DNA from: Catajapyx aquilonaris
Lineage: Eukaryota
Direction: 5' to 3'
NCBI GenBank assembly: GCA_000934665.2
Contig: JYFJ02005137.1
Location: 1 to 34,768 of the forward strand
DNA length: 34,768 nucleotides
Shown here: one piece after another, positions 12,345-34,768 of the stretch
Numbering within the stretch: position 1 is the first letter of the stretch
How the letters are laid out: every line of letters begins with the position of its first letter
Position numbers and translations under genes: made by a program
The notes under the pieces: model-generated
The model's database searches: none
Seen by the model: only the letters and a program-made list of their open reading frames with translations
Told to the model about the DNA's origin: nothing

Positions 12345-13331
12345 TAGGCTACTACAAAAATAAAAAGACACCATAGCCCGGTCAAGTAATTCACAATTAA
12401 TGTGAAAACAAACCATGAAATTAGGTCTCTCACACCTCACATTTTACTAACCATATGCAAATCTGTGTACTTTCGAAAGCACATACTAACAGGCCGTTAT
12501 GATTTTCACAGAAACGTGGGAATGAGCGGGCTCTACTCTTTCCTACCTGCAGGACCCCAACCCACTGTACCTGATGTCCAACAAGAATTGTCGCAGCAGC
12601 AGCGCAAGAACTACAGTCTCTCGTGTCCCTGTGCTCGTAGATTGTAGTTCGTGCGCTGCCTCTGCGACAATTATTCTTGTTGGACTGATAGTACAAGCCT
12701 TCCTACACAATCATTACTTAAGTCCTGTAATGCAACGAAATTAGTCAACTGCAAATCCCAATTAACGGGAACCCCAGCATATTGCGAGTCCCTGCTAATT
12801 ACTTCCAAGTGCAATTAGGCCTGCATTTGAGTCAATCAGTTTCCTCCGAACCCACTCACCCTGGTCAATTCCACCGACGAAACAGACTGGCACCCTCAAC
12901 AGCCAACGTAGCGAGGATCCAGGCGTGAAATGGGGCAGGAATTTCCGCAAAAGTGTGGAGCCAACGCACCGTGACCAGTCACTCAGCCAGCTAATAATCC
13001 GGATGACCTCACGCGGAAGGCAGATGCGCCTGTGTACCGGAACTTCCCTTCGAGAGAGCTGCAGGAAGGATGACCAGTCTTCCAGAGCAGTTTGGCGATG
13101 TGTGGAATGTTCTCCACCGCAAATAGAGGAGGTCACGGTCAACGACGATTCACATGAAGTGACAACTAGTCATGTGATGGCGGACATCTTGGAACAGCCA
13201 TTTTATTATTATAAGGACGTCGTAGGCCGGACGGCAGATGGCGCGCAATAAAAGGATCGTCGGTGCCATATTGCGTGCAATCCCCTTTTCCTTGCAATTT
13301 GCCGTATCTTTCCCACCAACGGGTTCAAAAA

Positions 13332-14827
13332 ATGGCTTCGGAGGCCTGGACCAAGCTGGAGGTGCAGACGCTGATCGAGGCGTACAGGCAGCACCCTTCC
13401 CTGTACTCTGCCTCGGATCCGCAGTACCACAACAGGGCGGTCAGGCAGAAGGCGCTGCAGGAGATTGTGGACCAGCTCAGGGTCAGGAGGCCTGACACCG
13501 GCCAGGAGGAGGTCAGGAGGAAGATTCACGGGCTCAGGACATGCTTCCTCTCGGAGATGGCCAAGGTTGGGTTATTGGACGTTAAATTAACATTGCCTTG
13601 TTGTGTATAATGTACACAGCGACATTACGCTAATTCAAACACAAACACTGTGACAACATGGCAGCTAGAGAGATGTTGCAAGGATCTATAGTCCGTTAAT
13701 CTTCTTGCAGATCCAGGCATCAATACAAAGCTGCAGTGGGGAACAATACGTGCCCAAACTCTGGTATTTCAACTTGCTCCAGTTTCTGAAAGAGCACATC
13801 ACCATGAAGACTAGTGTCTCCTCCATGGTTTCAGGACATGATGTCACTGATGAGGTAATAATGTCTTATTACAAATGTTGTACTCGCAGAATCTGCGAGT
13901 ACCTGACCAGTCTGTAGAATTTTTGAAAATATAATTGGTCATGTATGAGGGTAGCGAGGACCTCTTTGTTATCCACTGGCACCCCATTTTTGGGAAAAGC
14001 CATGAAGAATATGATGATGATGACAAATGTTGTAATGTTTCTGGCCCAACAGCAATAACCCAGTAAATAAAAACTCTCTTCTGCAACTCCAAAAACATTA
14101 CCGCCAAACAGCGTGAGATTGTGCCAGCACATTGTTTAGACAGCAGTGTGCCCTACAGCAAATTTTACTTGTCGTTGCCGACCTGACCATCCTTAAATGT
14201 AGTGAAACATGCCTAAATTAGGTAGTTTACGCCTGCTGCCAGTGTTGTCCATAAATGTGCTGGCACAATCTCACCCCGTTTGATGGTATATCAATACATC
14301 TTGAATTGAGATTCAATGCTGAATACGAAAGTGTGTTCTTAAAATTGTTTCATTTCACACAGTGACATTATGAAGGCAAGTGATTGTCCATTTTACAACA
14401 ATTTTGAAATAATATCCAGATGTCGAGAATCGGAAACATGACCACTATATCACCAGTCGCCTCGCCTGACTCGACCAAGAAGGCCAAGAAACGCATTTCA
14501 CCAGAAGGTACTCGTAGAATCTTACTGGATAAGATGGCAAGAGCGTCGGAAGAGGAGGATGACGACAGTGCTGCTTTTGGACGCTACGTGGAGAGAGAAA
14601 TGAGGTCCCTCAAAGACAGGGCCCTGTTCCTTAGGACGAAGAGAAAAGTTATGAATCTTCTCTTGGATGCTGTAGAGGAGCAAGAAGGTATCCACATGAC
14701 TGTGGAGGGCATCCCTTCACCACAGATAATCACACCAGAATTACATAACGAAGATGGGGAGGTGGTTGTGTCTTACCAGTGTGAACTTGAACCTTACGAT
14801 GATTCTAAGGAAACCTGTAAGCAGTGA
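13332..14827 (+). CDS. MADF (Myb/SANT-like in Adf-1) domain protein with C-terminal BESS-like motif, about 261 aa
   Basis: Exons 13332-13565, 13711-13854, 14420-14827, all phase 0, GT-AG. MADF hallmarks WT...LIEAYRQHPSLY...QYHNR..RQKA...EVRRKIHGLRT...YVPKLWYFNLLQFL. C-terminal DDSAAFGRYVEREMRSL...KRKVMNLLLD. AATAAA at 14903-14908. Confidence 0.85.
14101..14286. mobile_element. Tc1/mariner-pogo-type MITE in MADF gene intron 2
   Basis: About 33-bp imperfect TIR (ccgccaaacagcgtgagattgtgccagcacatt / aatgtgctggcacaatctcaccccgtttgatgg) with TA on both flanks. Confidence 0.75.
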
Positions 14828-15410: not shown

Positions 15411-18400
15411 CTATGCTGTAGGCGCAGGTGCATCTCCTCCAAGCTTCTCTTTACCTTTCCCGTTCTTGTCTTTATCGGGATGAGGTGTATTCCACCCTTT
15501 CAGTCCCTCGGGAAGGGTGGTGTCCTCCTCAAACGATCCTGTCCCAGCCACAAACTCCTCATATGTTGACTTCTCTGGGAATGGCCTCTTTCCAAGCAGC
15601 TCCAACATATCCTCTCTACTTAGTATCTCCTGCTTCAAGAGCCTCTCTCCCACCTGAAATTAGTTGCGTTAATTAGTGTTAGGTTGGAACTGGTAGGCTT
15701 CAGTATTAGTGATGGCAACTGACACTTTTGTAGCGTGTGTCTAACCTTTTCAATATCCTCTCTGTGCTTGGTCAAAAGGTCAAAGGTGTGGTCATAAGCT
15801 TCCTGGATGAGCTTCCTGACCTCAGTGTCTATCAGCTGGGAAGTCTCCTCCGAGTACGGCTTCTCAAGGACCATTTCTCCAGGTCGGGGCATCTCAAAGC
15901 TCACGTTTCCTACCTTCTCATTCATCCCAAAATGCACTACCTGAAAGAAGTGAGTTTCTCAGGCACAATCTTGGTTATGAACTGCCACGTGTAGCATGAA
16001 CAGGGAAAACATCTTTGTACAATGGCTAATGGCTCATGGATAAAACACCTATTTTTAAAATGTTTCAGTAAGTTGAACATACTCAGCAACACTCACTGTC
16101 AGCGTATATAAAGGCAAAAAGCATGTAAAATGTATCCATCGAAAAAGGATGGCTCACCTGAGCATATGCACTCTGAGTAACTTTCTGCAGGTCATCCTGC
16201 GCTCCAGTAGTTATTTTTCCAAAAAATATTTTCTCTGAGACACGACCCCCTAAGGTCATGCACATCCGGTCAAAGAGCTGCTCCTTGGTGTACAAGTACT
16301 GCTCCTTTGGCAGGTACTGCGCGTAGCCCAGCCCTTTGCCTCTAGGGATGATGGACACCTTCAGCAGTGGGTCTGCATGCTCCAGAAACCAGCCTGCTAC
16401 TGCATGTCCAGCCTCGTGGTAGGCCACTGTTCTCTTCTCCTCTGGTTGAAGGACGTTTGTCTTCTTCTCCATACCGGCTACAACTCGCTCAATGGCTTGC
16501 TCAAAGTTCTTCATTATGATGTTCTCATTCAGGTCACGAGCGGCTATCAGAGCTGCCTCATTGCACACATTGGCTATATCTGCACCTGTTAATCAAAAGA
16601 AAGCATCAGCCTGGATGAAAATATTTCTGTACATGAAACAATGGGCGTCATTCTGTTACAAAATATTAACACAGCCGATCACAGCTAAAATGATCGAGGA
16701 GATCCATTTGCAAGACTCTATGGAGTTCATGTGAGAACTGGTGACATTGCTTTTATTGGAGCACCACTATTTTAAAGGGACACTCCACTCAAAAAACAAG
16801 TTGGCCCCCAAAAATTGGGCAAAAAATCCTGATTCCGAATGTGCAATCGTTTTTTTTCTACGCCCAACGGTAACACGGAAAATCATATATCTACACACGT
16901 CGTCTTTCGTCGTCTGCTAAAAAGGGCGATACAACACCATCCAGCGGCAAACTGGAGAAGTATAGTGTGCTCAGTAAACACCATGCCACGCCAGGCGAGC
17001 ATGGTCTAGTTCCGCCCGGTTCCACTCTGGTGGCGTCCCCACCTGCCCCGCGTGCGGTTTTCGAACGACACACTTCCAGCTTTCACACTGGCCTTACCGT
17101 TCGTCTCTAAGAAAAACTGCTTATACCCTCGGAATAAGGATTTTTTTGCCCGATTTTTAGAACCCAACTTGTATTTTGAGTGGAGTGTCCCTTTAAGTAA
17201 ATTGCCATTTCAGTAATAATGAACTAAACGCCCTCATTACTTATTGTCAGTTGTCAAAATCTCACGCATTTACTTTACCAGTGAACCCTGGTGTGAGTGC
17301 AGCCATCTTCCTAGAAAGGTCAGCCTTGTCCACTAAGGTCTTGAGTGGCTGCAGATGCACTTTGAATATAGACGCCCTCCCCTTGATGTCTGGGGCTGGC
17401 ACAAAGATCTGCCTGTCAAAACGCCCTGGCCTTAGGAGAGCCTGATCCAATATGTCTATTCTGTTGGTGGCTGCAAGGACGACAACGTTGGTGGTGGTGT
17501 TGAAGCCATCCATCTCAACCAGCAGTTGGTTCAGGGTGTTTTCTTGTTCAGAGTGACCTCCAAAGCTGCGTCCCCCACGCTTCCTGCCTACCGCATCTAT
17601 TTCATCTATGAAGAGGATGCAGGGGGCAGTCTTTCGAGCCATGGCAAACATGTCTCTGACCTGGAGCATAAAACAATGGCCAGTTAATAATGAGTTAGTT
17701 GCCCAATATTATTTTCTGGTTGTAATATAACACATATTTAATCCATTTTACCAAGGTTTCCCTTTTACAATGGCCTTGTGAACGAAAATAGGTCATGATA
17801 AACTAATATTAACAACAACTAGCTTGATACAATCATGTCCCATATGTAAGGCCACATTTACATGTGAGAGATTTGATCAGCGATGTGCAGTGATGAAATC
17901 AATTGCTTGGGAGTGAAATGGCCCAACGATGCTCATTGCTGAGCGAGTTGCTCACATATAGACGCGACCTAACAGAGTCTGAAATTCCAATACACGTGAT
18001 TAAATTGTAGTGTGAACTTACTCTGGAAGGCCCCACACCAACAAACATCTCCAGGAACTCAGACCCAGACACTGTGATGAAAGGGACATTTGCTTCTCCA
18101 GCAGTGGCCTTGGCCAAGAGAGTCTTCCCAGTGCCAGGAGGACCTGTGAGGATGGCGCCCTTTGGGATCTTGGCGCCCAGTTCAATATACTGCTGGGGGT
18201 TGCGCAGAAAATTCACAAATTCCATTATCTCCACCTTTGCTTCTTCACACCCAGCGACATCCCTGAATCACAAGGACAAACCTTCAATCAATCTCATCAT
18301 ACTTTATTACCCCAAAAAATCACATGACTTACTTGAATCGTACTCCGATATCACTAGAGTTGATCAGCTTGGCTGTACTTTCCATAACACCTCCAAATAT

Positions 18401-20132
18401 ACCTCCTCCTCTCCTCCCTCCCCTGCCCCCCATCATCTCAGCAGATCTCCTCATCATGAACAACAAAAATCCTATCAGAAGGAGGGTTGGTATAATCCCA
18501 GTGACACTTGCAGCTTCCAGTTCAGTCTTGTAAATGACCGGGATAAAATTAGGGGCCTCTACGTTCATGTCCATCTGAGCATTCTCAAGGTTACGCTCAA
18601 ATGAGTCCACGCTGCCAATGTTGAACCAGAGCACACTCTGCCAAACAGAGTTTAAAAGTGCATTTGGTAGGAAAGATCACAGTGAATAACTGTCAAAAGT
18701 CCATTTACTCACAGCTCCATCAATCTGATTCCCAGGCATTAATCTGACTCGAACCCATTTCTTATTGACCACCTCCAGCTTTTCAACAATGCCCTTGGCG
18801 AGGTAACTTGAAAAACGAAATGAAATTCAATAGTGTTACTGTCGCTTGTAGCTAGCAAAGTGGAAGCATACTTGTTGACAAAGTCCTTCCAAGTGATCTC
18901 CTTGTATCCCATCTCGTAGTATGCAAGTGCACCTAAGAGGCCGATGGTACCAAGCACAGCCATCATCATCCACTTGTCCCTGTCGCCTTCTCCAAAGCCA
19001 CCCTTTCCAGGTGGTCCAGTTGAACCCCTTTAATAAAATAATCATAATCATTAAATAATATTGACACACATAAATAATTCCTCCTCATGATTTTCATCTT
19101 ATTTCTTATTTCATATGATTCCTGATGGTTTTCTCCTCAGAGTCCATTCTTTAATTTTTCCTCCACTGATAGCCCCATGTTAACAATATCTAGGGTTAAA
19201 TTGCAGCTAATGTCGAAACGACTCACTTTGGAGGCCCTCCAAACATCCCAAATGACCACTGGTCAGATGGTCGCTGTTGACCTTTCTGAGACGGTTGACT
19301 TGGAGCAGCACCTCGGGAAGGAGGAGCTGCATCTTTCTCAGCTGCAGGCGCTTCCTTCCCTTTGTTGTTGCCTGCCTTGGGCTGACCATTTCCAGAATTG
19401 CTACCCTGATTAGGAAAAAACTTTCCAAACCCCTTGGGAGGCTTCTCACAGAACTGGATCCACTTCTCAAGAATTGAGCTCACTGGTGCACTTTGAAACA
19501 AAGCCAAGTTTTGCTGCAACTGGAAAGGAAGGAAAATGATGAAATTCAACACATATTGTGATTTGTGATGCATGCAACAAAATGTTATTAGGCAATTGCA
19601 AGGCTTTTGTCCTATACTCGAAATTTTGGCCATATATTCATCCCAGTTTCTTTCTTACAGCATTAAAAAAAATATTATAATAATCACCACCCTGAAACCA
19701 AGTGGGCAGTGATGTCATCCTTGCCACTGCCAATAATTTGTCAAGTTGCATCACCCACAGTCGACATCCGATGTAATTATTCCATTAGCTGCTGACAGCA
19801 CGTGCCATTAAAAGTAGGTAATTTAAGGTCACTTCCTCATTGCTATGGCTTGGTACAAACCTGCAGTCCAAATTGCAGCAGGTGTTACACCTTGGAAAAT
19901 TTACGTTCGCCCCACATTAATTGATAGTTCATGTCACATCTATTCAGAGGTGTATTAAAGTACCGTACTGTCCACAGCACAGTATAAACCTTGTGACGTC
20001 TTGCGCAAAGAGACTTACCTGCCTGACCGTGAGCCCAGAAATCCCTGCCGGTCCTCCTCCAGCAGAGGCCCCTCCTTGCTTCAGGAGCAGCCTCTCCAGC
20101 CTCCTGGCAGCGCAGATGAACCTGTACGCCAT
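15411..20132 (-). CDS. AFG3L2: AFG3-like protein 2, mitochondrial m-AAA metalloprotease, about 816 aa
   Basis: Ten exons: 20132-20019, 19519-19227, 19027-18872, 18806-18713, 18637-18333, 18262-18022, 17660-17279, 16585-16158, 15940-15746, 15653-15411, phases consistent. Walker A GPPGTGKT, Walker [20 protein letters not shown], zinc motif HEAGH, and AFG3L2-type C-terminus [13 protein letters not shown]...LPEGLKGWN. Confidence 0.97.
16776..17192. mobile_element. Kolobok/T2-type MITE (TTAA TSD, AGG...CCT termini) in an AFG3L2 intron
   Basis: TTAA(16772-16775)-agggacactccactcaaaa...ttttgagtggagtgtccct-TTAA(17193-17196). The imperfect inverted repeat continues for about 60 bp (aaaattgggcaaaaaatcctgattccga / tcggaataaggatttttttgcccgatttt). 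Confidence 0.85.
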
Positions 20133-20718
20133 CCTGCAGACCTACAGAAGAAGTCGCACCGACATACTCCGCCTGTATGATGCGAATGATTGAGATGAAT
20201 TGGACGAAAAACCTTTCTCTAGTGGGCCGCCATGTTGGATCGTCCCATTCAGTCCCCACCCACACAGAAATGATCAACGCAACGCACTTGTCAGCTTCTT
20301 GGGAGTTAGTTCAGCCGCCCGACACCTGCCGAAATTCAACGCTCAAAAAGGGCGCTGATGTCAAACGCTGACAGTGACATCTGTCAGCTAGTGGCGACAA
20401 TGCGAAATTGGCCACCAGATGGCAGAACCTACGAAAGAAACACAGTTGACAGATTTACTATGACGCAATGTAATCACCGTCGACACTCGACATGTACTTT
20501 TTAACTAATCGAATGTGCAATTAAATATCGGGTCCCTTCAGGCTAAAGCGTGTTGGGCTAACATTGAAGGGGAAGAAATTAATGGAGAGGCGTGAACGTC
20601 CTTCACCTGACAACCCTGCTCCGAGGATTTGCATATGGCGTCGGCTGCATTACAGCTGCTGCACTGAGGGCTGCGGTCGTGTCTCATTCCGTCTTTTCCA
20701 GATCAAAAGAACGGCGGC
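20133..20718. promoter_or_regulatory. Bidirectional promoter region shared by AFG3L2 and TCF25
   Basis: Divergent ATGs only 586 bp apart; CpG-rich; clustered tgtca/tgaca motifs at 20358-20387. Confidence 0.7.
20409..20427 (+). promoter_or_regulatory. Candidate CTCF-binding site
   Basis: tggccaccagatggcagaa closely matches the CTCF core CCACYAGRKGGC. Confidence 0.55.
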
Positions 20719-23022
20719 ATGTCGTCCCGCGTGCTTCGGAAGCTGCACAGCGAGCAGGGGGTTGGAGGAAGGAAAGGGAGAGGGGGCCTGGAAGGGTCGC
20801 AGGAGGAGGAGAGCGACCCGGACACGGAGAGCGTCACGGAATTCCGATTGCAGCATCAAAGAGGAGGGGCAGCAGGAAAAGGGAACGTCAACCCGTTCGA
20901 TCTGGTGAGAAGATTTAATCGCATTCCATCGTTAAAATGACATTCATTATCAAAATGATCTTTAAAAAACAATCATATGATTGGCAACTAATGTGCCTTG
21001 CTAATTTCAGCTGAATCAGAATTCACCGTCTGAATCAGAAGTGAAGGAGGATGACGACAGGGAGACTGAAGCGATGGCGTGTGCGGGCAACAACGAGGAT
21101 GGGGACCAGATGAAGCAGAGGCGTAAAAAGAAGAAGAAGAAGAAACCGCTCCGGGGCAGCAGCCTTGGTGGCGGAGGAGGCGCGGGAAGCAGCAGCAGCA
21201 ACAACAAGCGGAGCAGTGAGGACAACTTGGAAGACGCGGATGAGATAGACCGCACCGTAAGGGAGGTCAACCAGCTCCTGGGCGATTCGCACCATCCCCA
21301 GCATAACCAACGGCAGGCGCAACCCAGTGAAAAACACCTCCTGAAAGTAGAACACAAGCATCTAAACCCGGATAATGAGATGAAACGCATTTTTGGATCG
21401 CGTGTGATCCAGTCGGAAACGACAAAGCGACGTGGACGCGGTCCCAGGTCAGGGTCGTTCCGGAACTTGTGGTTGGTCACTCCAAAACCAATGTGGCCGC
21501 AAGTTGGAAAGGCTGGAATCACCATGAAGTTCATTGAAACCCGTCATTGCCTCCAGTACTTTGCTTTTGAGCACAGTCCGCAATACCAGGAGATACAAGG
21601 GAGATTCCTAGATGCCGTTGAAAGTTACAACCCAGACAATGTTTTGGAGATACTGAATGTCCATCCATACCATGTCGATGCACTCTTGCAGTTGTCTGAC
21701 TTATGCCGCATGGGCGAAGACGCACAAATGGCTGTCGAATTGGTCGAACGCTCCTTGTATTCGCTCGAGTCAGCATTACACCCCCTTTTCAGTTTTGGAG
21801 CCGGCAACTGTCGCTTGGAGTACCGCAGGCAAGAGAACCGTGCGCTGTTTGTCGCCATATTCCGCTACTTGGGATTTGTAGGGCAGCGTGCCTGCCATCG
21901 CACCGCTCTCGAATTCTGCAAGTTGCTGCTTAATTTAGACCCGGATGACCCCTTAGCAGTCACGTTGTTGATTGACTTCTATGCCATCCGAGCCCAACAG
22001 TACAAGTGGCTGCTGCGGTTTTACGCACAGATGGAAGCTCAACGCAACCTCTCGCAGCTACCCAATTTTGCTTTCTCAGTTGCCCTTGCCCGCTTCCTGC
22101 TTCTCCAGTCGGCAGAAGAGGAAGAGGAAGGCGAGAGTGCAGACGAGGCGCTTCAGAATGCCCTCTTGGCGTACCCTGCAACTCTGTCCTTGCTCCTTGA
22201 CAAGTGCGGTGTTAACACAGGATCATGCAAGACGGCCTCACATTCATTCTTCTCTAAAGCAGGGCTTGATAAGAATTGCCCAGCAGCACTGATGAACTTG
22301 ATCCAGTTGTATGTAGGGAGGGCTTATCATGTGTGGAAGGATCCAGCAGTGTTACTCTGGCTGGAGACCAACGCAGTGAAGGTGGTGGAGCGGGTGGATG
22401 CTGGAGAAGGTGTCGAGAAGGAAGAGAGGGAGAGGAGGATGCGAAGGTACCAGGGGATGCCCAGGAATGTGCTCAGGCACATCCTCATCTCGGAGGTCAA
22501 GGATGCCACTGCCGCATTGCCACAGGTATGCTACAAATCCTACAGATTATATGGTAAGAAAGTATATACTTTGTCTTATTACAGGAGCTGACCCACGCAC
22601 CCTTGCTGACCTTCGACCCGTTACCTCCAGCAGACTCCGTAAGCTCCTACACACGTCCACCCCGCCCAACGCGCCCAGTGTCAGCCCATGACAGTGGGAA
22701 CAACAACAGCAACCTCATCTCCATCTTCCTCCGCTCATTGCTGCCCAACTACAACGTGGCCCAGCAGCCGTACCAGGTGCAGGCAATGCCTCCAGGGCAG
22801 GTGGAGGCTGCCAGGATACAGCTGGAGGAAGCTGCTGGACTGCCAGCCGGAGGTGGGGCGGTTGGAGGAGCCGAGGGAGGGGCTGCAGGGGGAGGCGCAG
22901 CTGATCTGAGGAGGAGCGTCACCTCCCTTCTGGACGCCATGAGGGACCTGCTCAGCAACATCAATGTGCCTGACATGCCTCAAGACGCGGATGATGACGA
23001 CACGGACAGAGGCGAAAACTGA
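20719..23022 (+). CDS. TCF25: Transcription factor 25 / ribosome quality control subunit (TCF25, Nulp1, Rqc1 family), about 712 aa
   Basis: Exons 20719-20904, 21011-22525, 22585-23022, all phase 0. Family motifs MSSRVLRKL, NPFDLLN, LNPDNEMKRIFG, FAFEHS.QYQ, HPYHVDALLQ, RLEYRRQENR, GQRACHRTALEFCKLLLNLDP, LPNFAFSVALA, FDPLPP, FLRSLLPNY. Confidence 0.96.
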
Positions 23023-23680
23023 TGCCTACTGGCTTGGTTGTTGAATTGGTCTATGCAGGTTGTTTGGTTTCCTGACCAATTTTCAAAATGTCTTTCAAGC
23101 AATGAGTTTTTTTGCAATGCTTTCCTCCCGCTCCTTCATAAAATTCAAGAGATGAGCTTCATCTGGCTGGGGTCTTTATATGCAGCATATGGCACACTTT
23201 GTATAATGTTTTTACTCTGGAGTAGCCGGTTGGGGAGTAATGTATTGTACATAGGGAAAAAAATAATTTGAGTACATATTTATCTAGTGTTGCGTGTGAA
23301 AAAAAACAACAATTACTGTAACCTTTCACTAGTGGAATAAAATTTTTGAAAGCGTAGCACTTGTAGCTAAAACCTCCCGCTTTCCCAAGGAATACCCAGA
23401 TCGCTGTCACTTAATATCTTTATTAAACAATGGTTTTAAAATCCCTGGTTATATGCAAGTCACATCAGCTTCCATGCAAATGGTCTTAGAACCTAGGATT
23501 ACATTGTACGTCACAGCTACAGTACATGTGAAATGTAAAAAAATGTGAATATGAAAAATGAGGAAGTTTTCATTCGAGAAAATGGTCTGAACTTGTACCT
23601 GTTTACATAACTTGTAAGCTTTTCGAGTCGCAACTATTACCAAGTAACTACATGAAATATGTACAGTCTCGTTGATAAAT

Positions 23681-23976
23681 AATGGTACGACTCTATGGAC
23701 GAAATGTTTAACCTAATTATCCAGCATCATTCCAACCTTTTCTGGATCTCGGGTGAGTCGTATGGCCCATCCCAATTTTAAAATAAAAGTCTTAATTACC
23801 AAAATGTCCAACCAGGTGCAATGCTTACGTAGATTTTCCTTCTTTGCCTTGCTTTTTTCATATTTTTTATTTTATTTCGATTCCCTTTCCCCGGACTTCC
23901 GGTCATGACCCCTAAAACACGCTGGCGACCCAGGAGGATTAGGATAAACATTTCGTCCCTATAGAGTCGTATCATT
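23681..23976. mobile_element. MITE-like inverted-repeat element
   Basis: aatggtacgactctatggacgaaatgtttaacctaat on the left versus attaggataaacatttcgtccctatagagtcgtatcatt on the right; exact termini and TSD ambiguous. Confidence 0.7.
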
Positions 23977-25258
23977 CTTTATGAACGTACTGTACTTCAA
24001 TTTTACACAACCATTAGGGGAATTCCAGAAACTAATGCCGCTCAGGGGTGAATGTCTGGGTGCACCTGTCCCAGCCTTCAAATGCAATGCGAATTGGAAA
24101 TTCACATTTCGGAGAAAACTGGAGCTATAAAATAATGTATGCAAACAATGGCAATTATGCATAAGTGTTCCCAATGTATACAATAATTTACCTCAATTTG
24201 ACTCAATAATTCTGGTTGTAAGCGCCAATTGAATGAACACAAATTAGGGACAACCTCCGATAATAAATTTCATAGGTATTCGTAGCACCTAATCTGACTT
24301 CCATACAATTGGTTCTAAGTCATATTAACACCTGTACCGCAATTCAAGCCGGTGATTAAATTTGCGTCTCTCTTTTATATATTCAAGTTTGTACATTGAG
24401 CAGTGTTTTCTTCGTTTTGGGCAGGGAATACGTTCAGAAAATTGGTGCATTTAGAAAGAGATTCAAAAGTCCTTTAAATAATGCGACTTAATTTTTGGAG
24501 GGCCCTTGGCGTGGCTGGCTGCATTTTCATCCCGTTCATTGCTGTCTGGCAGTGGCTTTGAATCAAACCGTCAATTTGTCAGGTACAAATATTTAGGCAT
24601 GTCAACAGCAGCCTTGATGGCATACAAATTTCTTTTTTCAAAATATAGAAACCTCTTCAAAACGCATGCACACTGTTATGGTACTTACTAGAAATGTCTT
24701 GCAATGGCACAATTAGTGGCCGCAATGTACTAAGAAATTTCATATGGGAATGAGAAAAAGTGTTTTACTTGGAAGCGCATTTGTCACAATAGTTGCCTAC
24801 CAATTCTTGGTCCTACAAGCTGTTTTCTTCAAGACGTGCCGTGGTAATTACATGTGCTGTTGTACATACAAAAGTGTAACACTTGGCATAAAAGTTCCAC
24901 GATCACACTTTCTTCTGCCGTATAAAAACATCCTACCTGAGTTATACTGTACTGTGTTTGTCTCGTTCCAGTCAATCAAATGACCATCAACAATTAGGCC
25001 TACTCTTTAGAAAAGGGCACATGAGAGTTGATTTTCATATTTTGGTGCCATTTTTCACTCGAAATTGTCGAAAAATGGGTTACAACCTTAGCTGACAAAC
25101 TTTTGGATAAGTAACCTGAGAGGAAATCCTAAAGTCAATGTAACTGTTACATAACGCAATGAACTAATAATCACTATTAGTGAAAATACACTTGAAAAGG
25201 TTAAGCATTGGGGTTATTTGAACTAAGGTTATGATACAAAATGCCTGCCATGCAAACT

Positions 25259-25568
25259 AAAATACGCAGGGTGTTTCCAGGTAATACCACGAGAGAAAAA
25301 TCAGCATCTTTTTACCGTACAAGTTACACTGGGACGGTGAGATTAAAAGTACACAAAACAGAAGAGAATATTTAAAGTCCAACACACAGGACACATTCAC
25401 ATCATGGAAACAATGTGTACAAAATATGATGGAGGTTGTTGACGCAAACACCGGGATTAATATCAGAACAATGACGCCAGAGCATACCAAAGTCACATGC
25501 ACAAAAACAAACATTTTTCTCTCGTGGTAAAATGCCCAGCACCACCCCGCATTTTCGTGCGGAACTAG
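25259..25568. mobile_element. Inverted-repeat element with possible Helitron/Helentron-like 3' end
   Basis: 17-bp perfect inverted repeat taccacgagagaaaaat (25285-25301) / atttttctctcgtggta (25513-25529), then hairpin ccgca-ttttcg-tgcgg followed by actagt. Confidence 0.45.
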
Positions 25569-25923
25569 TTTTGTTCTTCATTACTCAATGCTTTGATAAA
25601 TACACAAAATAAGTTGCTACCAAATTAGTATCATGCAACCATACAAAAGTTTAAAAAAAAACATTAACCTCTAACTGGAAAATGCACTTACACCTATGTA
25701 GTCTGTAAAAAAAAAAAACGAATAAGCTTATTAAAGAAGCCCTTATAATTTACAATTCAGCTCTTAAATAACCGGTATTGTTTGGTGAAAATTTGTTGGG
25801 TTCTTAGAAAAGCACTTTGATCCATGCCTTTTCCTCACTCCTTTGACCCTGCAGAGATCAGAAATTTGTACTTGAGCCCTTGGAACGTACCCTGCCACTT
25901 GGTGGAGAGCTTGTCATGTGGGG

Positions 25924-26147
25924 CTATTCAAGTTTTGTGTCACACAAGTTCTTTCGATGGTACTCATACAGGTGGGCACGAAGGCTGTTACGATTCTTGG
26001 TCACCTTCTGGCAGATGGGACACAGGAGGGGACCGCGGGACTTTCCGTGAAGGTTCTCAAAATGAGTTTTCAAGTTGTCCTTGCGGGTAAATTCCTTCCT
26101 GCACACGGGACAGCTGAAGCGAGACGGAAGCTGCTGGGATATGCCAC
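25924..26147 (-). CDS. Alternative terminal exon Z-a: C2H2 zinc-finger pair (BTB-ZF-type variable exon)
   Basis: Acceptor ctattccag, phase 1; CPVCRKEFTRKDNLKTHFENLH-GKSRGPLL-CPICQKVTKNRNSLRAHLYEYH; own stop. Confidence 0.85.
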
Positions 26148-27147
26148 CTGGAATAGATCAGAGTCAGGAATAGTAGCGGATTGTAATGGTTTTTATTATT
26201 GTTTTCAAGAGCTGAACAACCCCTGGCTCAACTCACCTGGGGTTTCATGAAAGAGGCTCCCTCTTTTTCGCCATTTCTTACAGCAATAATTTTTAAAATG
26301 AAGAAGTCTTAGTGGGGAGCTCATCAAGTTTTATTATCACATTAGTTTGATATATACAGTTATTGACTCTGTGCTTGTATTGCATTAACGTCATTTCCAA
26401 ATATTCAACATATCCATGAAGTGACACTATAACTCAAAGGGGCATGTGGTGTGTCTCATGTGTCCATGGGAGCTATGAACTAAGCAGATATTGCATGCAC
26501 TCCCTTCACGGATCTCAGGGGATGACAAGACATTTTAAAACGTGGTGTAAATAGAAGGGAAGACTAACAAATGGCTCAACAATATTTTGTCAAGGCAAAT
26601 TGGAAACAGTCGAAATAACACAGCACTCCTGAAACGGCAACAGTTCTTCAATCCTCACCTGCATCCACACCCAAACTAGGGGATGCTGCAGAAAGTCCTC
26701 TGAGCATAGCAAATAATTTTGCCATCAACAATCCCAAACTTTTATAACAATCATAATATTATAATCAGAGTCGTGCTTGACCCCCAATGAGAGGTAGACC
26801 GCAGACTTTTATTTACCCACGATACATATCTGGACTTTTGTATAAAGTGGCCGGGTCAGCAGGCAGGGAAGGGTGGCTGGGGGATGGGGATGCAAGTGCA
26901 ATGTCTTAAATGGCCATATTGTGAGTTCCCGGGGTGGTTAGCCTCAGGAAATCCCACCCAAGACAATGCGAGAGATGGCCCAACTCTACAAATGATGAGG
27001 AGGGTACCACAGTGCCACTCCACCTCAACGGCCTTTTAATCGATTCAGGTGTACACCAAAATCTCCCTCGCTCATCAATCATGTTTAACTATGTCAACTA
27101 TTGTGGTGTGATTGTTTCAACCTCATCCCCCACCCCGACTTTGAGCT

Positions 27148-27401
27148 TCAAGGATTCTTGTGACCCAATAGGGACCCCTTCCCTCCATGTCGTGGGGCAA
27201 CCCTTGCCACTCGCCCTGGCCTGTGAACTGCATACAAGTGATACTCCAGGGAAGCCTTGTTTTTGTACACCTTTCCGCAGGGCTGGCAGGCGAAGGGCCC
27301 GCGGTGTTCACCATGCTGGTTGCTCATGTGCCTTCGCCAGCTGGATGCCACCGTGAAGGAGATGTGGCAGTAGGGGCATAGGCGGGGCTGTCTTCGCGCG
27401 C
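27148..27401 (-). CDS. Alternative terminal exon Z-b: C2H2 zinc-finger pair
   Basis: Acceptor ttttggtatcttgcag, phase 1; CPYCHISFTVASSWRRHMSNQH-GEHRGPFA-CQPCGKVYKNKASLEYHLYAVH; own stop. Confidence 0.88.
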
Positions 27402-28344
27402 CTGCAAGATACCAAAAAGGGACCAAACCAAACCTTTCTCTTGTCGCTTGATTCCACACTATATTTTATTTTTATAATTCTTTTTAAAGAAATAGTCTGC
27501 TAACCCACCCTTACAATTTGTGCTTCTCTTTCTCTCTTTTTTGGCCTCACATTATCGGCCCAGTTGTCAGTGGAAAATCTCAGTCCGGTCTCTTGTACAG
27601 AGGATATGACAATGCATAAGCATGAAACAAGACAAATAATCGTGACAGAAAAAGCCACATTCAAAGCGTGCAAAAAGTGCTTGGAGTTTTAAAAAATCTG
27701 ACTGACACAAATATCTTCAGACAAAATATGAGTCAGCTTACTCATCTTCCTTCTCTGAAATTGCAGTTGAAGCCTAGTTACTTCTTTGCCCCTACTGCCA
27801 CATGTATCCAAAATTGTACACCTCTCTCACACAGCATGTAGACACTAACAATAGTACGTAATCCTATATCAGGCATATCATGGTAAATAATGATTCTGAA
27901 ATGAACTCTGCTAATTTCAAGACTTCAGCAGATATGCTTCCCATTGCCCTCCACCAACTTGAACTTTAACATACGCAAAAACAGCAACTTCCTTGATTAC
28001 ATAAGAGTAATAAGGTGCAAAAGACTGTTCAACAAACCAAACATTGCATGGGCTCATAACTGTCAAAAATATTGTACATTACTTTTAAGCACTTAACAAG
28101 TCTCAAAGAGGCATATAATTATTTTTACATTAACAAACTATAAATTCTTGGGAGACAAAAAAAGCACATTACATAATCTGTATAGACTGATTTATAAATT
28201 ACACCCCTCATCTGCCAGCTTCTTGCCTATCCATATCTAGCAAGAAAATAAATTCAACCATAAATGTATGAAAATGCAACATTTATATCAACATTAAATT
28301 CAGTGTCACTGAACAAATGCAATTGACTTGGATGATAGGAGAGT

Positions 28345-28586
28345 TCAATCGGCCTTGCAATTTTTGTGATGCCTGTAGTTGAGGTAAACCTGCTTATGAA
28401 CCGAGTAGTAATGAGACTGCATAGTGTGTCGATTCTTGTACACTTTGCCACAAATGTCACATACAATGGGATGGTTGTGCAAACCATGAATGTTGTTAAC
28501 GTGCCTGCGTAGGTGGCAGGCAGTCGAGTAGCTTGTTTGGCATTGACAGCAGCGGAAGCGACCTCCATCGACCTCTACTGCCCTCC
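28345..28586 (-). CDS. Alternative terminal exon Z-c: C2H2 zinc-finger pair
   Basis: Acceptor ttttggctttgcag, phase 1; CCQCQTSYSTACHLRRHVNNIH-GLHNHPIV-CDICGKVYKNRHTMQSHYYSVH; own stop. Confidence 0.88.
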
Positions 28587-30072
28587 CTGCAAAGCCAAAA
28601 GCCATTCTTTGGCAAAACACTTTCACCACCACCAAAACTCCCTTTATAACGACTACTGCAATGACACCACACACACAAAAGCCAGTGGCTGCTGCAAGCA
28701 TTGCTCATTTCTCTCACTGGTACTTCCTTCACATTCTCAAAATAAAAATTGTGAAGAATTTAAATAGCAGTGCTACAACATACTGGTGCCTATTCATTCA
28801 ATCAGCACATACAAGAGACTATTCTAGTGCACAACACTCTTTACACTCAAGGTATTGAGAAGTGACTCACATGGGTCCCAGCTGTGTAAGCAGTGTCAGC
28901 TGTCACACTGAGATACATTCCCAACCCCTCCACCTCCCCCCCACCCTTTTGGCAACCGATTACAATGAGGAAATTAGCATAAAAATAATTAATGATTATT
29001 ATTCAAGAAGCTAAGGCATGAGGCAATGATTGGTTAAGTTTCAAAAGACCTACATTTTCTTAGATTTGATGAAAAAAGCAAGTTCAGAATATTTCTTGTC
29101 ATGTGTGGATGGACAGAAAAATTGTCCTGCAGTCCAATGATAATATTGGGATCTTTGTCAATCCAAATGTGAAAACTGTGATTACGGCAATAATAATATT
29201 GATGATCCAGATAATGGGGATGGAAAAGATGGATTAGCCCTTCCTGGGCTGAAATTGCATTCCAGTCCAGAATATGCCTAATTTGGTTTGGGTCACTCCA
29301 CAGTCGAGACGTGTGTGTATAGTATATAATTATACAGATCTGGCAACTCCCCCTCTTATCGCGTGGATCTTTCGAGTCCCACCTGGCCGCTGATCGACTA
29401 AGACGAGGAGAAACACTACCCCACTGCAGCAAAAGTTATTACTATTACTAGATCAGATAATGAGAACGTGATGCGAACAGGCCCCAATGCAAAGGAACGA
29501 ACGGACCATGCCTACTAGATTTGAATTGGCGGTTTGAGAGTCTTGGTCCGCCGTGTTCTGCTACCAGATTCGCTGTGTGGCGATTGTTGGATAAAGTAAC
29601 TGAAGGAATGGGCCAAGCGCCGAAACTACAGCAAAGCGGCAACCCACCTAACTACTGATATGTCGCTCCAAGGTCACGGGGATCTGACAGGGAAACCTAT
29701 ATGAAAAAAGGGGAGTTGCAGTGGGGTGGGCCATTCTATGCTTTTCAGAAAATTTTGTTTACATCATGATGGATGACAAAGCCATCAATTTTTCTCCATG
29801 AAAATTTTGAATCGCCAACTGGGGCATAGAAAGTTTTGCGTATGTCAACATGTGTGTGGACCAATCATATATCATTTAAAAAATATAATTGACAAGACTT
29901 GATTACTATCAATAATTTTTATTTTTAAAAAAAACATTGTTCTGAGGAAGATATTATTGTTATTTCAAGTGTTTCTGACCTAGGGCTGAAGAAACCATTT
30001 TTGACCCGTCAACAGCCATAACAGTAACACAAGAATGCATAAGTACCTAGAACTTCAATGGATCCAAGAGCA

Positions 30073-30234
30073 CAGTGTTGGACATTAATCGAGGCATAGT
30101 GCTAGCGACATTTTTCAAAGCAGCATAAGAAGGAATCTTGCTCGCCCGGCTTGCACTATCCTTATCTTTGATTCCTTCTTCTGCCGCTTCAGAAAATGTT
30201 GCTAGCACTATGCCTTGATTAATGTCCAACACTG
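30073..30234. mobile_element. Tc1/mariner-type hairpin MITE
   Basis: About 65-bp near-perfect TIR starting cagtgttggacattaatc; TA on the right flank, CA on the left. Confidence 0.85.
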
Positions 30235-30372
30235 TACATTTCTCAACTTCCCCAGCCTAATATTTCGCAACAAATGAAATTGGCTTGCTTCCTTGTGAAT
30301 CACACTTGAGTCAAGAGTTTTGATGCACAGCAGAGACATGGCTGACTCGCTTACAATTGTGGTTAATTAAAA

Positions 30373-30638
30373 TCATATAATATTAAAAGCGGAGGATGAA
30401 TTCTTCTTGTGATTAGTGGCAAAGTGAACGCTTGCACTATTCCAATTCTTGTACACTTTGTCACACAACTTGCACACATATTGCCCACTGTCAGGACCAT
30501 GTATGGTGCTAATGTGTCTCCTCAAGTGGGTGTTTCTCGTGTAAATCCTGGAGCAATGAGGGCACTTAAATATGGCCCCCCTCTTCTTTCCCCTGACCAT
30601 TCGATTTCCCTCTGCCATCTCAGCCTGAGTCACATCTC
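30373..30638 (-). CDS. Alternative terminal exon Z-d: C2H2 zinc-finger pair
   Basis: Acceptor ttttggtcttgcag, phase 1; CPHCSRIYTRNTHLRRHISTIH-GPDSGQYV-CKLCDKVYKNWNSASVHFATNH; own stop. Confidence 0.88.
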
Positions 30639-31245
30639 CTGCAAGACCAAAAGTCTACTTGTCTTACTTTAAACCGCATCCAAAAGCCTTCAGCCCTAGA
30701 TTCACATGAGAAGCACAAATGCACAGAATCTCTCAACTAATGTCAGGTAATTATCTCAAAACAGCAAACTCCACCATTATTACTCTTGTGGTTCGCTATT
30801 AACGTCAGGGTATATTATTGCATATGCACGAACAGAGGCTGATGTAAGTATGCAGTTGTGATAAACCCAAAAATCTAGTGAGCCAGTGTAGTTCAAGCTG
30901 ATGTCACCATTCATACTATGACACCTAATCCAACACTTCAAATGCCAAAACTGCAGGTAATTAGCACAGAAATTTCTAATTGTTGCGCTTGGAAAATTAG
31001 AATTGTCAAGGTCTGCCTTAGCAGACACCCACTGAAAAATCCTGGGTTTGTGTCAAGAGAAAGGGAATAATCAATCCTGCATCAATAACTAATTATGCAT
31101 GAAATTGTATGCACATCTCTCTCTTTAGTAACCAGTGTATGACAGGAGGTTTGTGATGTAATGTAAAAAGGCACGTCCAGATATGTAGTGCCCCATTTTA
31201 AAGTACACGAGGCCCACTCTACTGATAAGTTGAGCCGCTGCAGCA

Positions 31246-31448
31246 TTAGTCACAGTGTGCAGCATACTTATGCGTCTCGAGGCTCCCCTGATTTTTATAT
31301 GTCTTCCAACATACATTACACACAACAGGGTGGTTGAGTTCACCATGAATGTTATTTATGTGTCGCTTCAAGTTCCCAGCATTGGAGAAAAGGCTTGTGC
31401 ATTCAGGGCATTGATAACGGGTTTCAACAGTTGACTTAGCATTTACAC
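31246..31448 (-). CDS. Alternative terminal exon Z-e: C2H2 zinc-finger pair
   Basis: Acceptor cttggtcattgcag, phase 1; CPECTSLFSNAGNLKRHINNIH-GELNHPVV-CNVCWKTYKNQGSLETHKYAAH; own stop. Confidence 0.88.
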
Positions 31449-32250
31449 CTGCAATGACCAAGAGGAAGGAAGCCAATCAGTAAGAATAAGAAAATGGATT
31501 CCTCGCAGTTGCTTCATTCAATCACATACACAAGTTGCATATTAGGAGCATCCTTATCATCACTCTTCACAATGGTTGCATAATAAATTTGTATTTTCAT
31601 TTCTATACAGTTGAAACCATTTTCCTACAGACTTGGTGCAACTATTTCAATTGGTCCTGTAAAAGAAACTCGCAAATGTACACAAATCAAAGTTTTATAG
31701 CAAAGAATCCGAGTAAATTACGGTAATCAGCTAATACTTAATATAACTGGCACTCTGCCACACAGGTAGCTGGTCTTAATTCCTCTGTTAATTTAATTAC
31801 AATTTCTAACAATTAAGTGTCCCTATTCCTGCTGAGATTCTGCTGTACATACAATATACCACTTGGGCAACCCAAACCCATCACCTACATCCCTACAAGC
31901 ATTTTAATCCAGAGAACTGATTTCAAGAAAATAATGAACAGTCACGAGCAAAATTATGCGGACAGAAAGGGTCAGGGGCTCCTACAATTTCAGTGTAAAC
32001 CAGTGACATCTCTGTCCAAATGTTATTGTGTGGGAGGAGTTCCATGAAGATTATGACGTCCCCTTTGGTATAATCACATTAGAGGAGGAGTTCATTGGTT
32101 TCACAATGAACTCACTGGAGCTCCTCACACTAGTCTGTCCACATCCTTTTGCTTGACTGTATTCTGTACAATCCATTTCAGGGTCAGGGAGTTACCTCCC
32201 TCAGCAACCAACAAAACCCACCAACCAACTACACTTTGTCAGCATACTTC

Positions 32251-32495
32251 TTACGAAGGCTCCAGAAATGTTGTGTGGTACCTCCGCTTATGAACCCTCA
32301 AACTGCTCCTGGTACTAAACAGCTTATTGCAAACAGTACACTTCCACTCGTTGTAAACTCCAGTGTGGTGGTCAAAGATGTGAGTACTCAAATTTTTCTT
32401 GTGAAAGAAAACACGATGGCAAAATGGGCACACACCAGTCTTTGATCTACCCGATTTTGTTTGGGGACCTATGTCCAAAATCGGATCAGGAAACC
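32251..32495 (-). CDS. Alternative terminal exon Z-f: C2H2 zinc-finger pair
   Basis: Acceptor cactctttcag, phase 1; CPFCHRVFFHKKNLSTHIFDHH-TGVYNEWK-CTVCNKLFSTRSSLRVHKRRYH; own stop. Confidence 0.87.
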
Positions 32496-33388
32496 CTGAA
32501 AGAGTGGAAGTGGGGCATCAGAACTTGCCTATCTCTTACCACCAGAAGCCACACCAAAATAATGCATGCTCTCATCCCAGCTACTGAATTGAATTCATAC
32601 AAAAAGTAGGTCTGAAAACTGCCCCCGTGCTAAAAATAGTGCTGCTCTTGTAAGGGCTCTACAGAGACCAGTAACCATTCAAGGCTTTGAGGTGGTTTAT
32701 GCAAGTCATATTATAGGAACTTGAGCTGCTGCTGCTGCTGCTGCTGCATGATTTCACTGCACCTATTGCCAGCTAGCCCCTTGCAGTCAGTCAATAATGT
32801 ACCCCGCCATCATTTGCTACCATCTAATAAACTGCATACTTTAAGTGAGGGGTCAATGAGTAAAAAGTACACCTGCTTTTACAGCCTGTCACAATGAATG
32901 CACCATCACATGTGAAATAATATTAGCACCCCTTCAAAATAAGTTTAAAATTCCCTACTGTTTTTATAATCAGGAAGGACAAAACTATCTTTGGTTCAAA
33001 AATATTGCAACGATACATTCCAAGTACCCACTACGATAATGGATAACAACAAATTTTCACTGTAGGATACATTACCAGCCATCAGGCATGTATTTACCAT
33101 TTTTTTCTTCTTCTGGGTACACCCATTCCCACCATGTACTGCTATACCATATAAAAGTCACCAAAAAATACTTTTTTTGCTTTATACATGCTAAGTATGT
33201 AGGAAGCATAGTGGACTGCACATCTCTCTTCACTGCCACAAAGCTGAACCGACTTTCACACAAGATATAAAAGCTCATTTTCCAATGCAAAGGAATTACA
33301 ATTTGTACCAGAACACCCTCAACACAGCAATGCAAAAAAAAGTGATTACACACAAAAAGTCAGTCATTCACAGGAAAGCAGAAGTACT

Positions 33389-33621
33389 TCAGAGTAGATC
33401 AACCAATTTCATCCCGTGACACTTCATCCCATGTACTCGCAGAACACTCTTGTTCTTGTACCTACGCTTGCACACTTGACACCTCCACACGTTCTGCATG
33501 CCTGAGTGCTGATCCGCCATGTGAACCCTAAGATTGCCTACGTTTGAGAATGCCCTGTGGCAGTAAGGGCATTTGACTTTTTCAGAGATGGAGGAGATGC
33601 CTTCTGGCAGCAAGCAAAGCC
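33389..33621 (-). CDS. Alternative terminal exon Z-g: C2H2 zinc-finger pair
   Basis: Acceptor ttttgctcttgcag, phase 1; CPYCHRAFSNVGNLRVHMADQH-SGMQNVWR-CQVCKRRYKNKSVLRVHGMKCH; own stop. Confidence 0.88.
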
Positions 33622-34317
33622 CTGCAAGAGCAAAAATTTTACTCGGGGATGCTGCACTGCACTTCTTCTTTACAACTTTTGTCATGCACCTGGTCTAATT
33701 TTTCTCTGTCCAGAACATGTCATGCATCAAGTTAAAGCCACGTCCACACATTCTCACTCAAACTCCCTCTACGGCAACTTGTTTCCTTGGCTCTATTAAC
33801 ACACTAGCTTAAGAGGTCCTGTCAAAGTGTCACGGAAAGATCCATCACAGCAGTCACATCCCAACTATCACGTAACATACAAATACACTGTATTGACAAT
33901 AATTCACTTAGCATGGGAATATTCCAATTTCTGATGCCATGCATCATTCATGCAAAATCTTCCTTGACAAAGAGTAAATGGAATTTCAATACATTTACGG
34001 ACAGAAAAGGGACATTGTGGGCTCAAATTGCTCAGGAATTGCTTTAGGGACAGCAGCCAACTGCAATACTTTTCCCACCAAAAATTGTTTCTTCGCTGTG
34101 GTGCTACCAGACTGAACAGACTTCCATTAGATGATTAATAGTGGAAATGGCAATCCAACTATGTTTCAAGAGAAACTCAAATGATGGGTTGTCCCTTCTA
34201 TTCGGATATTGCAAAATCTGTATTTGTAATCTCCGGTTTTCAATTTTCCCCCAATTACATCACAAATGGAGCTGCTATAAATATTTTTTCATATTCATTC
34301 TTAAAGCAATGGTAGTA

Positions 34318-34684
34318 CTGTATGATTTATTCAACTCCGGACCCACGTCACCAAGCCCCCCTTCTCATCCCCGTCCATCCTTCCATGGACTGTACTAGTT
34401 ACCAACCTAACCTCACACATGTGGTCACCGCTGTCACCATTAATGCAATATACAGTCAACGCTGTTCCTTCCTGTCCATGACAAGGGAATACGCAGGGTG
34501 TCAATAAACACTCGCATTAATCATTTATATCACAAATGTATGCCATATGATTTAATTACAACGTTGTTTGTGATACCACATGTGTGAGATTAGGTTGGTA
34601 ACAAGTACAGTCCATGGAGGGGTGGACGGGTGGAGGAGAAGGGGGGCTTGGTGACGTGGGTCAGGAGTTGAATAAGTCAGACAG
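34318..34684. mobile_element. MITE with long (about 110-bp) terminal inverted repeats and TA TSD
   Basis: TA-ctgtatgatttattcaactccggacccacgtcaccaagcccccc...cacacatgtgg pairs with ccacatgtgtg...ggggggcttggtgacgtgggtcaggagttgaataagtcagacag-TA. Confidence 0.88.
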
Positions 34685-34768
34685 TATTTACACAGGATAT
34701 TTACAGTTGCATATTGTTCACACAATCAGATAATGTTGGGTAATTCCACCGTACCAGACTTTTACATT

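Follow-up and report, generated by a model that had tools for sequence, protein, structure and literature searches.

Seven two-finger exons in a row in Catajapyx aquilonaris: probable alternative last exons of a single transcription-factor gene

The minus strand of contig JYFJ02005137.1 (assembly GCA_000934665.2) of Catajapyx aquilonaris carries a row of seven exons, each of which encodes one pair of C2H2 zinc fingers followed by a stop. The contig was analysed from position 1 to 34,768, and this whole stretch of 34,768 nucleotides is called the window throughout. The array is genuine, its seven members are intact, and at least part of it is expressed. The seven units are probably the alternative last exons of a single minus-strand transcription-factor gene, the shared front of which would lie beyond position 34768 and would most likely be a Tramtrack-group BTB front of the kind found in lola, broad and fruitless. 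This layout is already well known from Tramtrack-group BTB genes (PMC11426971). What is new is one more such locus; the mechanism is unchanged.

The exons appear between 25924 and 33694 of the minus strand as seven stop-to-stop open reading frames (ORFs; table 1). Each encodes the pattern Cx2Cx12Hx4H, a linker of eight residues and the same pattern again, followed by a stop. All eight zinc ligands and the eight-residue linker are present in seven of the seven exons, the stop lies 2–24 codons past the second finger, and every exon reaches the Pfam cut-off for zf-C2H2. The strict pattern Cx2Cx12Hx4H is found for 14 fingers in the window, and all 14 fall inside the seven ORFs; in 200 shuffled sequences the mean was 0.035, and no shuffle had more than one. 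A looser finger pattern, applied to all six frames of the window, yielded 21 matches. Fourteen of these are the paired fingers of the seven exons, all on the minus strand, and the remaining seven are solitary and have other, poor spacings. An earlier note on this DNA, made from the letters alone, had described seven minus-strand pairs of this spacing, each closed by a stop, and the ORF list, the finger scans and Pfam agree with that description. Comparison of the seven exons with the window by tblastn detected no additional or decayed exon, the best match elsewhere having an E-value of 0.009. The recognition helices of the first fingers, which the earlier note had given correctly for all seven exons, diverge strongly from one exon to the next. 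Those of the second fingers are more alike, with N at the first helix place in six of seven.

All seven exons open in the same manner. A pyrimidine-rich tract ends in AG and is followed by G, and two leading bases precede the first full codon, which is phase 1 (seven of seven acceptors, as had been proposed). The distance from acceptor to acceptor is 0.8–2.05 kb, a slightly wider range than the approximately 0.9–2 kb first estimated. Because each unit ends in its own stop, the seven cannot be chained into one polydactyl protein; this part of the original description also stands. A many-fingered C2H2 gene, of the type of a KRAB- or ZAD-like tandem array, was considered and rejected, since a stop stands behind each pair and 0.6–1.8 kb of non-coding DNA separates one pair from the next.

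Direct evidence for the use of one acceptor comes from RNA. Contigs of run X1, the kind of which is unrecorded, were mapped on positions 20000–34768, and 8 of the 34 contig records were listed; statements on X1 contigs and junctions refer to these. One X1 contig skips two GT..AG introns of the neighbouring gene Tcf25 (20903>21010 and 22521>22581), and X1 therefore holds spliced RNA. Five loose contig ends are listed over the 14.8 kb. One of them, at 32496, is the predicted acceptor of exon 6 and carries 28 extra letters, which have no match in the window on either strand. The exon that donates to exon 6 must therefore be located upstream of exon 7 and to the right of position 34768, more than 2.2 kb from exon 6. 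The reading frame is open across the junction (...QEGSQDYSH-G-FPDPILDIG...) in the predicted phase. The offset of one base between 32496 and the acceptor at 32495 would be accounted for if the upstream exon, like the intron, ends in G. The earlier note had held that the acceptors are served by a shared donor beyond the right edge. The junction bears this out for exon 6, where the frame runs on from an exon that the window does not contain and exon 7 is skipped; that one donor serves all seven goes further than this junction. Taken together, the stop in each unit, the single acceptor phase, the G with which each exon starts and the feeding of exon 6 from a distant exon across exon 7 point to alternative last exons of one gene.

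The proposed mechanism can be set out in steps. (i) The primary transcript would run through the array. (ii) The last shared exon would end after the first base of a codon (phase 1), which is G in the single junction observed. (iii) The spliceosome would join this shared donor to one of the seven acceptors at a time. As all seven exons start with G, a donor ending in G would yield a glycine codon at each of the seven possible junctions. (iv) The message would end at the stop and the cleavage site of the chosen exon. (v) Each protein would then combine the same front with one of seven two-finger DNA-binding ends, and the proteins would differ in their DNA targets. Because the helices of finger 1 differ and those of finger 2 are more alike, target choice is predicted to differ mainly through finger 1. 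The front would most likely provide a Tramtrack-type BTB multimerization domain, as in lola, broad, fruitless and tramtrack.

Further X1 contigs touch other members of the array. Downstream of exon 2, a minus-strand contig (26313–26754, depth 18.3) ends at 26313, with an AATAAA (start 26335) approximately 20 bases before this end, and is probably the 3′ untranslated part of exon 2. X1 cover is zero in the bins 28381–28873 and 33311–34296, which correspond to the coding part of exon 3 and to exon 7. High X1 depth at 29860–30352 coincides with a 66-base inverted repeat and with two loose ends of 255 letters. Its interpretation as the untranslated region of exon 4 was rejected on these grounds, and the signal was treated as that of a repeat expressed elsewhere. 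The inverted repeat lies behind exon 4, at 30072–30235, and forms a hairpin with 66-base arms that are 89% complementary and separated by 32 bases. RNA contigs on both sides carry the 255-letter loose ends, as expected of a small foldback or of a repeat resembling a miniature inverted-repeat transposable element (MITE) that is expressed elsewhere.

Several observations weigh against assignment of the seven units to one gene with cleanly alternating ends. RNA support extends to one of the seven acceptors that the earlier note had singled out for a search for junctions, that of exon 6, and comes from one contig; among the records listed no junction was seen at the other six. A long minus-strand contig (31285–32288; 1004 bases, depth 15.6, no differences) runs from inside the coding part of exon 6 through the acceptor of exon 5, so that the exons are not cleanly separate transcription ends. 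This contig is either a long 3′ untranslated region of exon 6 or unspliced read-through, and the exon 6 message may include exon 5 in its 3′ untranslated region. The contig stops 39 bases before the exon 5 stop, right after an A-rich stretch. An AATAAA or ATTAAA is found between the stop and the next acceptor for four of the seven exons; exons 1, 5 and 7 lack a canonical poly(A) hexamer in the same stretch. The linkers are of two types. In exons 1–5 they read G-x4-P/Q (G first, P at the sixth place, Q in exon 4), and in exons 6 and 7 they read T/S-G-x-x-N-x-W. This sequence difference would allow a division into two sub-arrays or even into two genes. The window, beyond the edge of which the shared exons would lie, showed no BTB sequence. 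PF00651 (BTB) is likewise absent from the 120 of 623 matches that were listed in a word-indexed search for longer proteins, a list filled by many-fingered proteins, which outscore any two-finger protein. The last point on this side is a consensus donor, CAGGTGAGT, at 26231–26239. Placed 89 bases before the acceptor of exon 1 and in phase 1, it follows 31 open codons, an ATG among them, and could give exon 1 a small transcript of its own.

A donor so placed would suit a tandem cluster of seven small genes, each with a promoter, a short first coding exon and a two-finger protein. The earlier note had itself named an ATG-bearing first exon for each ORF as the observation that would overturn its interpretation. 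Such candidates stand upstream of exon 1, where there are two, and upstream of exon 3, where there is a single weaker one. The remaining five exons have no ATG-bearing phase-1 candidate: exons 2, 4 and 6 have none of any kind, and exons 5 and 7 have only candidates that lack a methionine. Separate genes are also at odds with the exon 6 message, the upstream exon of which lies at a distance of over 2.2 kb, on the far side of exon 7 and off the window, and with the common phase of all seven acceptors, which is unexpected for unrelated first exons (chance approximately (1/3)^6). A cluster of this kind is thus very improbable. The CAGGTGAGT site is a perfect 5′ splice-site consensus, and the minus strand of the finger region contains no other; five matches occur in the whole window, against 0.66 expected. 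It could mark a private leader exon of exon 1, be a U1-binding element or have arisen by chance.

The ends might alternatively be attached to the shared front in trans, as happens with lola and mod(mdg4) in the fly. Separate promoters would then drive the single exons or groups of exons, and a 5′ transcript made independently would supply the donor for each acceptor. Trans-splicing is documented for both of these fly genes (PMC4387717, PMC11426971), and the donor of the exon 6 junction lies outside the window, an arrangement that does not by itself demonstrate joining in cis. X1 contigs cannot show transcript starts. Nothing in the array demands trans-splicing, however: the exons share one strand and one order, which is what ordinary cis-splicing requires. 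The lola-type U1 motif CAGGTRAGT, which in flies sits in the last 5′ intron, is absent from the minus strand of 33622–34768, the 1.1 kb of upstream intron in the window; the intron continues beyond the edge, and here the last 5′ intron may lie mostly outside the window. On balance, trans-splicing is unlikely.

If the seven are alternative last exons, the array poses the same problem as Drosophila PGRP-LC, in which one donor chooses among several alternative 3′ modules, and for the 3′ variable region of that gene dock-and-selector RNA pairing has been described (PMC6191721). In the 700 bases upstream of each of the seven acceptors, a search for a selector motif revealed nothing shared above shuffled controls. 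With words of 12 bases and two mismatches, the best word occurred in five of the six other introns, a count of five that 1 of 20 shuffles also reached. The observed count was four both with 14 bases and three mismatches (reached by 16 of 20 shuffles) and with 10 bases and one mismatch (5 of 20). As no shared motif rises above chance, a selector system of the PGRP-LC type is not indicated; the intron that would hold the docking site is beyond the window.

Named arthropod genes resemble the array to different degrees. The finger pairs of Tramtrack and Broad have the spacing Cx2Cx12Hx4H-8-Cx2Cx12Hx4H. In the fly, broad, fruitless and tramtrack have 2–4 ends each, compared with at least 7 here. 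Most first fingers of Lola are of the C2HC type, whereas all 14 fingers of the array are C2H2. The two-finger C2H2 ends of broad, fruitless and tramtrack are carried on alternative last exons, as in the array (PMC11426971). In lola, a shared front is followed by a row of alternative 3′ exons, and 17 of the 20 protein isoforms differ in the C2H2 zinc-finger motif at their ends (PMC11426971; bioRxiv 10.1101/132027; PMC4387717); the array has seven ends of this kind, all with stops of their own. The gene mod(mdg4) has a BTB front in common and more than 30 alternative 3′ ends (PMC4387717, PMC11426971). These ends are FLYWCH domains and all are trans-spliced, whereas the array is made of C2H2 pairs. 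A locus of the mod(mdg4) type was rejected, as Pfam detects zf-C2H2 in seven of seven exons and FLYWCH in none.

Tramtrack-type BTB domains are arthropod-specific and mostly paired with one or two C2H2 fingers, and many genes that encode them make isoforms that differ in the DNA-binding end (PMC11426971). The array has the corresponding traits. All seven exons end in exactly two fingers and a stop, within the one or two given in that source, and all seven stand in a row on one strand and in one phase, with AG|G acceptors and stops of their own. The same layout of seven alternative finger ends could nevertheless be attached to a non-BTB N-terminal module. Such a front would agree with the lack of BTB among the homologues listed (120 of 623). 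Against it, two-finger C2H2 last exons typically partner a Tramtrack-type BTB domain in arthropods (PMC11426971), and a non-BTB front is decidedly unlikely. The nine residues upstream of the exon 6 junction are uninformative for or against a BTB front.

Homologue searches returned mostly generic finger proteins. A profile of the seven exons, run against 1.84 billion representatives, produced 171,791 matches, the best 150 of which are all long, many-fingered proteins with 30–51% identity to single exons. A word-indexed search at near lengths gave six matches, none informative, and exon 1 alone gave no candidate among longer proteins. The solved structures recovered are generic finger proteins. 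The Tramtrack finger pair (PDB 2DRP) ranked 38th, and its match to finger 1 of exon 1 (E 9e-6) covers one finger and does not place the exons in that family. The ESM Atlas, searched with exons 1 and 5, returned generic C2H2 clusters; a cluster named ‘Longitudinals lacking protein, isoform G’ came tenth in the search with exon 1, did not reappear in that with exon 5 and serves as a lead only. No related array was detected among metagenome contigs. One metagenome alignment contained no conserved stretch to search with, and a second matched 123 stretches, none of them a relative. A third yielded eight loci, all set aside: L001–L006 contain scattered fingers of other spacings and were taken for unrelated multi-exon finger genes, and L007 and L008 contain no finger.

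The closest relatives among the matches listed are two proteins of the mayfly Ephemera danica, B566_EDAN018155 and B566_EDAN019001 (P0151 and P0201), with 40–45% identity to exons 1, 2, 3 and 5. They have the same pair spacing, the same linker of the form ...N-x-H-G-x4-P-x2-C... and Y-K-N in finger 2. The annotation presents each as one protein (834 and 265 residues) with many pairs in a chain, and both come from one 1.2-Mb contig. They are hypothetical proteins with no BTB domain and no one-to-one match to any of the seven exons. It is suspected that they represent alternative two-finger end exons merged by the gene predictor, and a comparable locus, wrongly annotated, is probably present in the mayfly. 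Among the matches listed from 5.8 billion proteins, the seven ends reach 45% identity at most. On this basis, the locus might be a lineage-specific, lola-like gene with expanded ends and no orthologue among the named fly genes, perhaps with a non-BTB front or with trans-splicing outside the insects in which it is documented; this is considered improbable.

The members of the array are only distantly alike. The other exons are 25–38% identical to exon 1, and the duplications are therefore old. Five of the seven acceptors have ...TTGCAG|G in common, and those of exons 3, 4 and 7 are 87–100% alike over 15 bases. Such likeness would fit tandem duplication, or just a common arthropod acceptor consensus. 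A 20-base inverted repeat, 95% complementary, pairs 27362–27381, the CPYCH-coding part at the start of finger 1 of exon 2, with 27784–27803. The second arm lies in the intron, 383 bases upstream of the exon 2 acceptor, where the plus strand reads LCPYCH... and gives a weak finger remnant (tblastn E 0.019). The repeat might derive from an inverted piece of exon that has since decayed, or it might fold into a stem in the RNA and so mask exon 2.

The array and its neighbours are listed in table 1. Tcf25 lies downstream of the array on the opposite strand. The finger gene therefore has its distal end at exon 1 (25924) and is convergent with Tcf25. Two adjoining inverted repeats at 34316–34686, with arms of 55 and 56 bases that are 93% complementary, lie in the intron that precedes exon 7 and form a foldback of approximately 370 bases, which is probably a MITE-like insertion. 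A scan for bacterial promoters and terminators showed no enrichment in this DNA and is irrelevant to a eukaryotic gene.

Table 1. Coordinates of the finger array and of neighbouring features in the window. Stop-to-stop ORF limits are from the ORF list of 25000–34768; helices are given as finger 1 / finger 2. Last-exon status is the probable interpretation given in the text.
Feature	Coordinates	Strand	Stop-to-stop ORF	Remarks
Alternative last exon 1	25924–26147	-	25924–26157	acceptor 26147; stop 25924–25926; helices RKDNLKT / NRNSLRA; most distal of the array
Alternative last exon 2	27148–27401	-	27148–27465	acceptor 27401; helices VASSWRR / NKASLEY
Alternative last exon 3	28345–28586	-	28345–28704	acceptor 28586; helices TACHLRR / NRHTMQS
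Alternative last exon 4	30373–30638	-	30373–30654	acceptor 30638; helices RNTHLRR / NWNSASV
Alternative last exon 5	31246–31448	-	31246–31476	acceptor 31448; helices NAGNLKR / NQGSLET; overlapped by the long exon 6 contig
Alternative last exon 6	32251–32495	-	32251–32517	acceptor 32495; helices HKKNLST / TRSSLRV; acceptor use seen in RNA
Alternative last exon 7	33389–33621	-	33389–33694	acceptor 33621; helices NVGNLRV / NKSVLRV; most proximal in the window; skipped by the exon 6 message
Intron 5′ of exon 7	33622–34768	-		no finger; lacks the 28-letter donor-side sequence; no strong U1-type motif; gene runs on past the window edge
Tcf25 gene	20625–23353	+		Pfam E 5e-113; two short introns confirmed by RNA contig
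FtsH-type AAA/M41 protease exons	16083–18676	-		
MADF-domain gene	13215–14827	+		
SNARE-domain exon	8751–9266	-		

Genes of this design allow one regulator with one multimerizing front to address many DNA targets, and in flies such genes control nerve wiring, metamorphosis and sex-specific behaviour. The array is a data point on growth by tandem duplication and leaves the known mechanism unchanged. Its seven intact and very different finger pairs provide defined, isoform-specific ends for knock-out or DNA-binding profiling in a less-studied arthropod.

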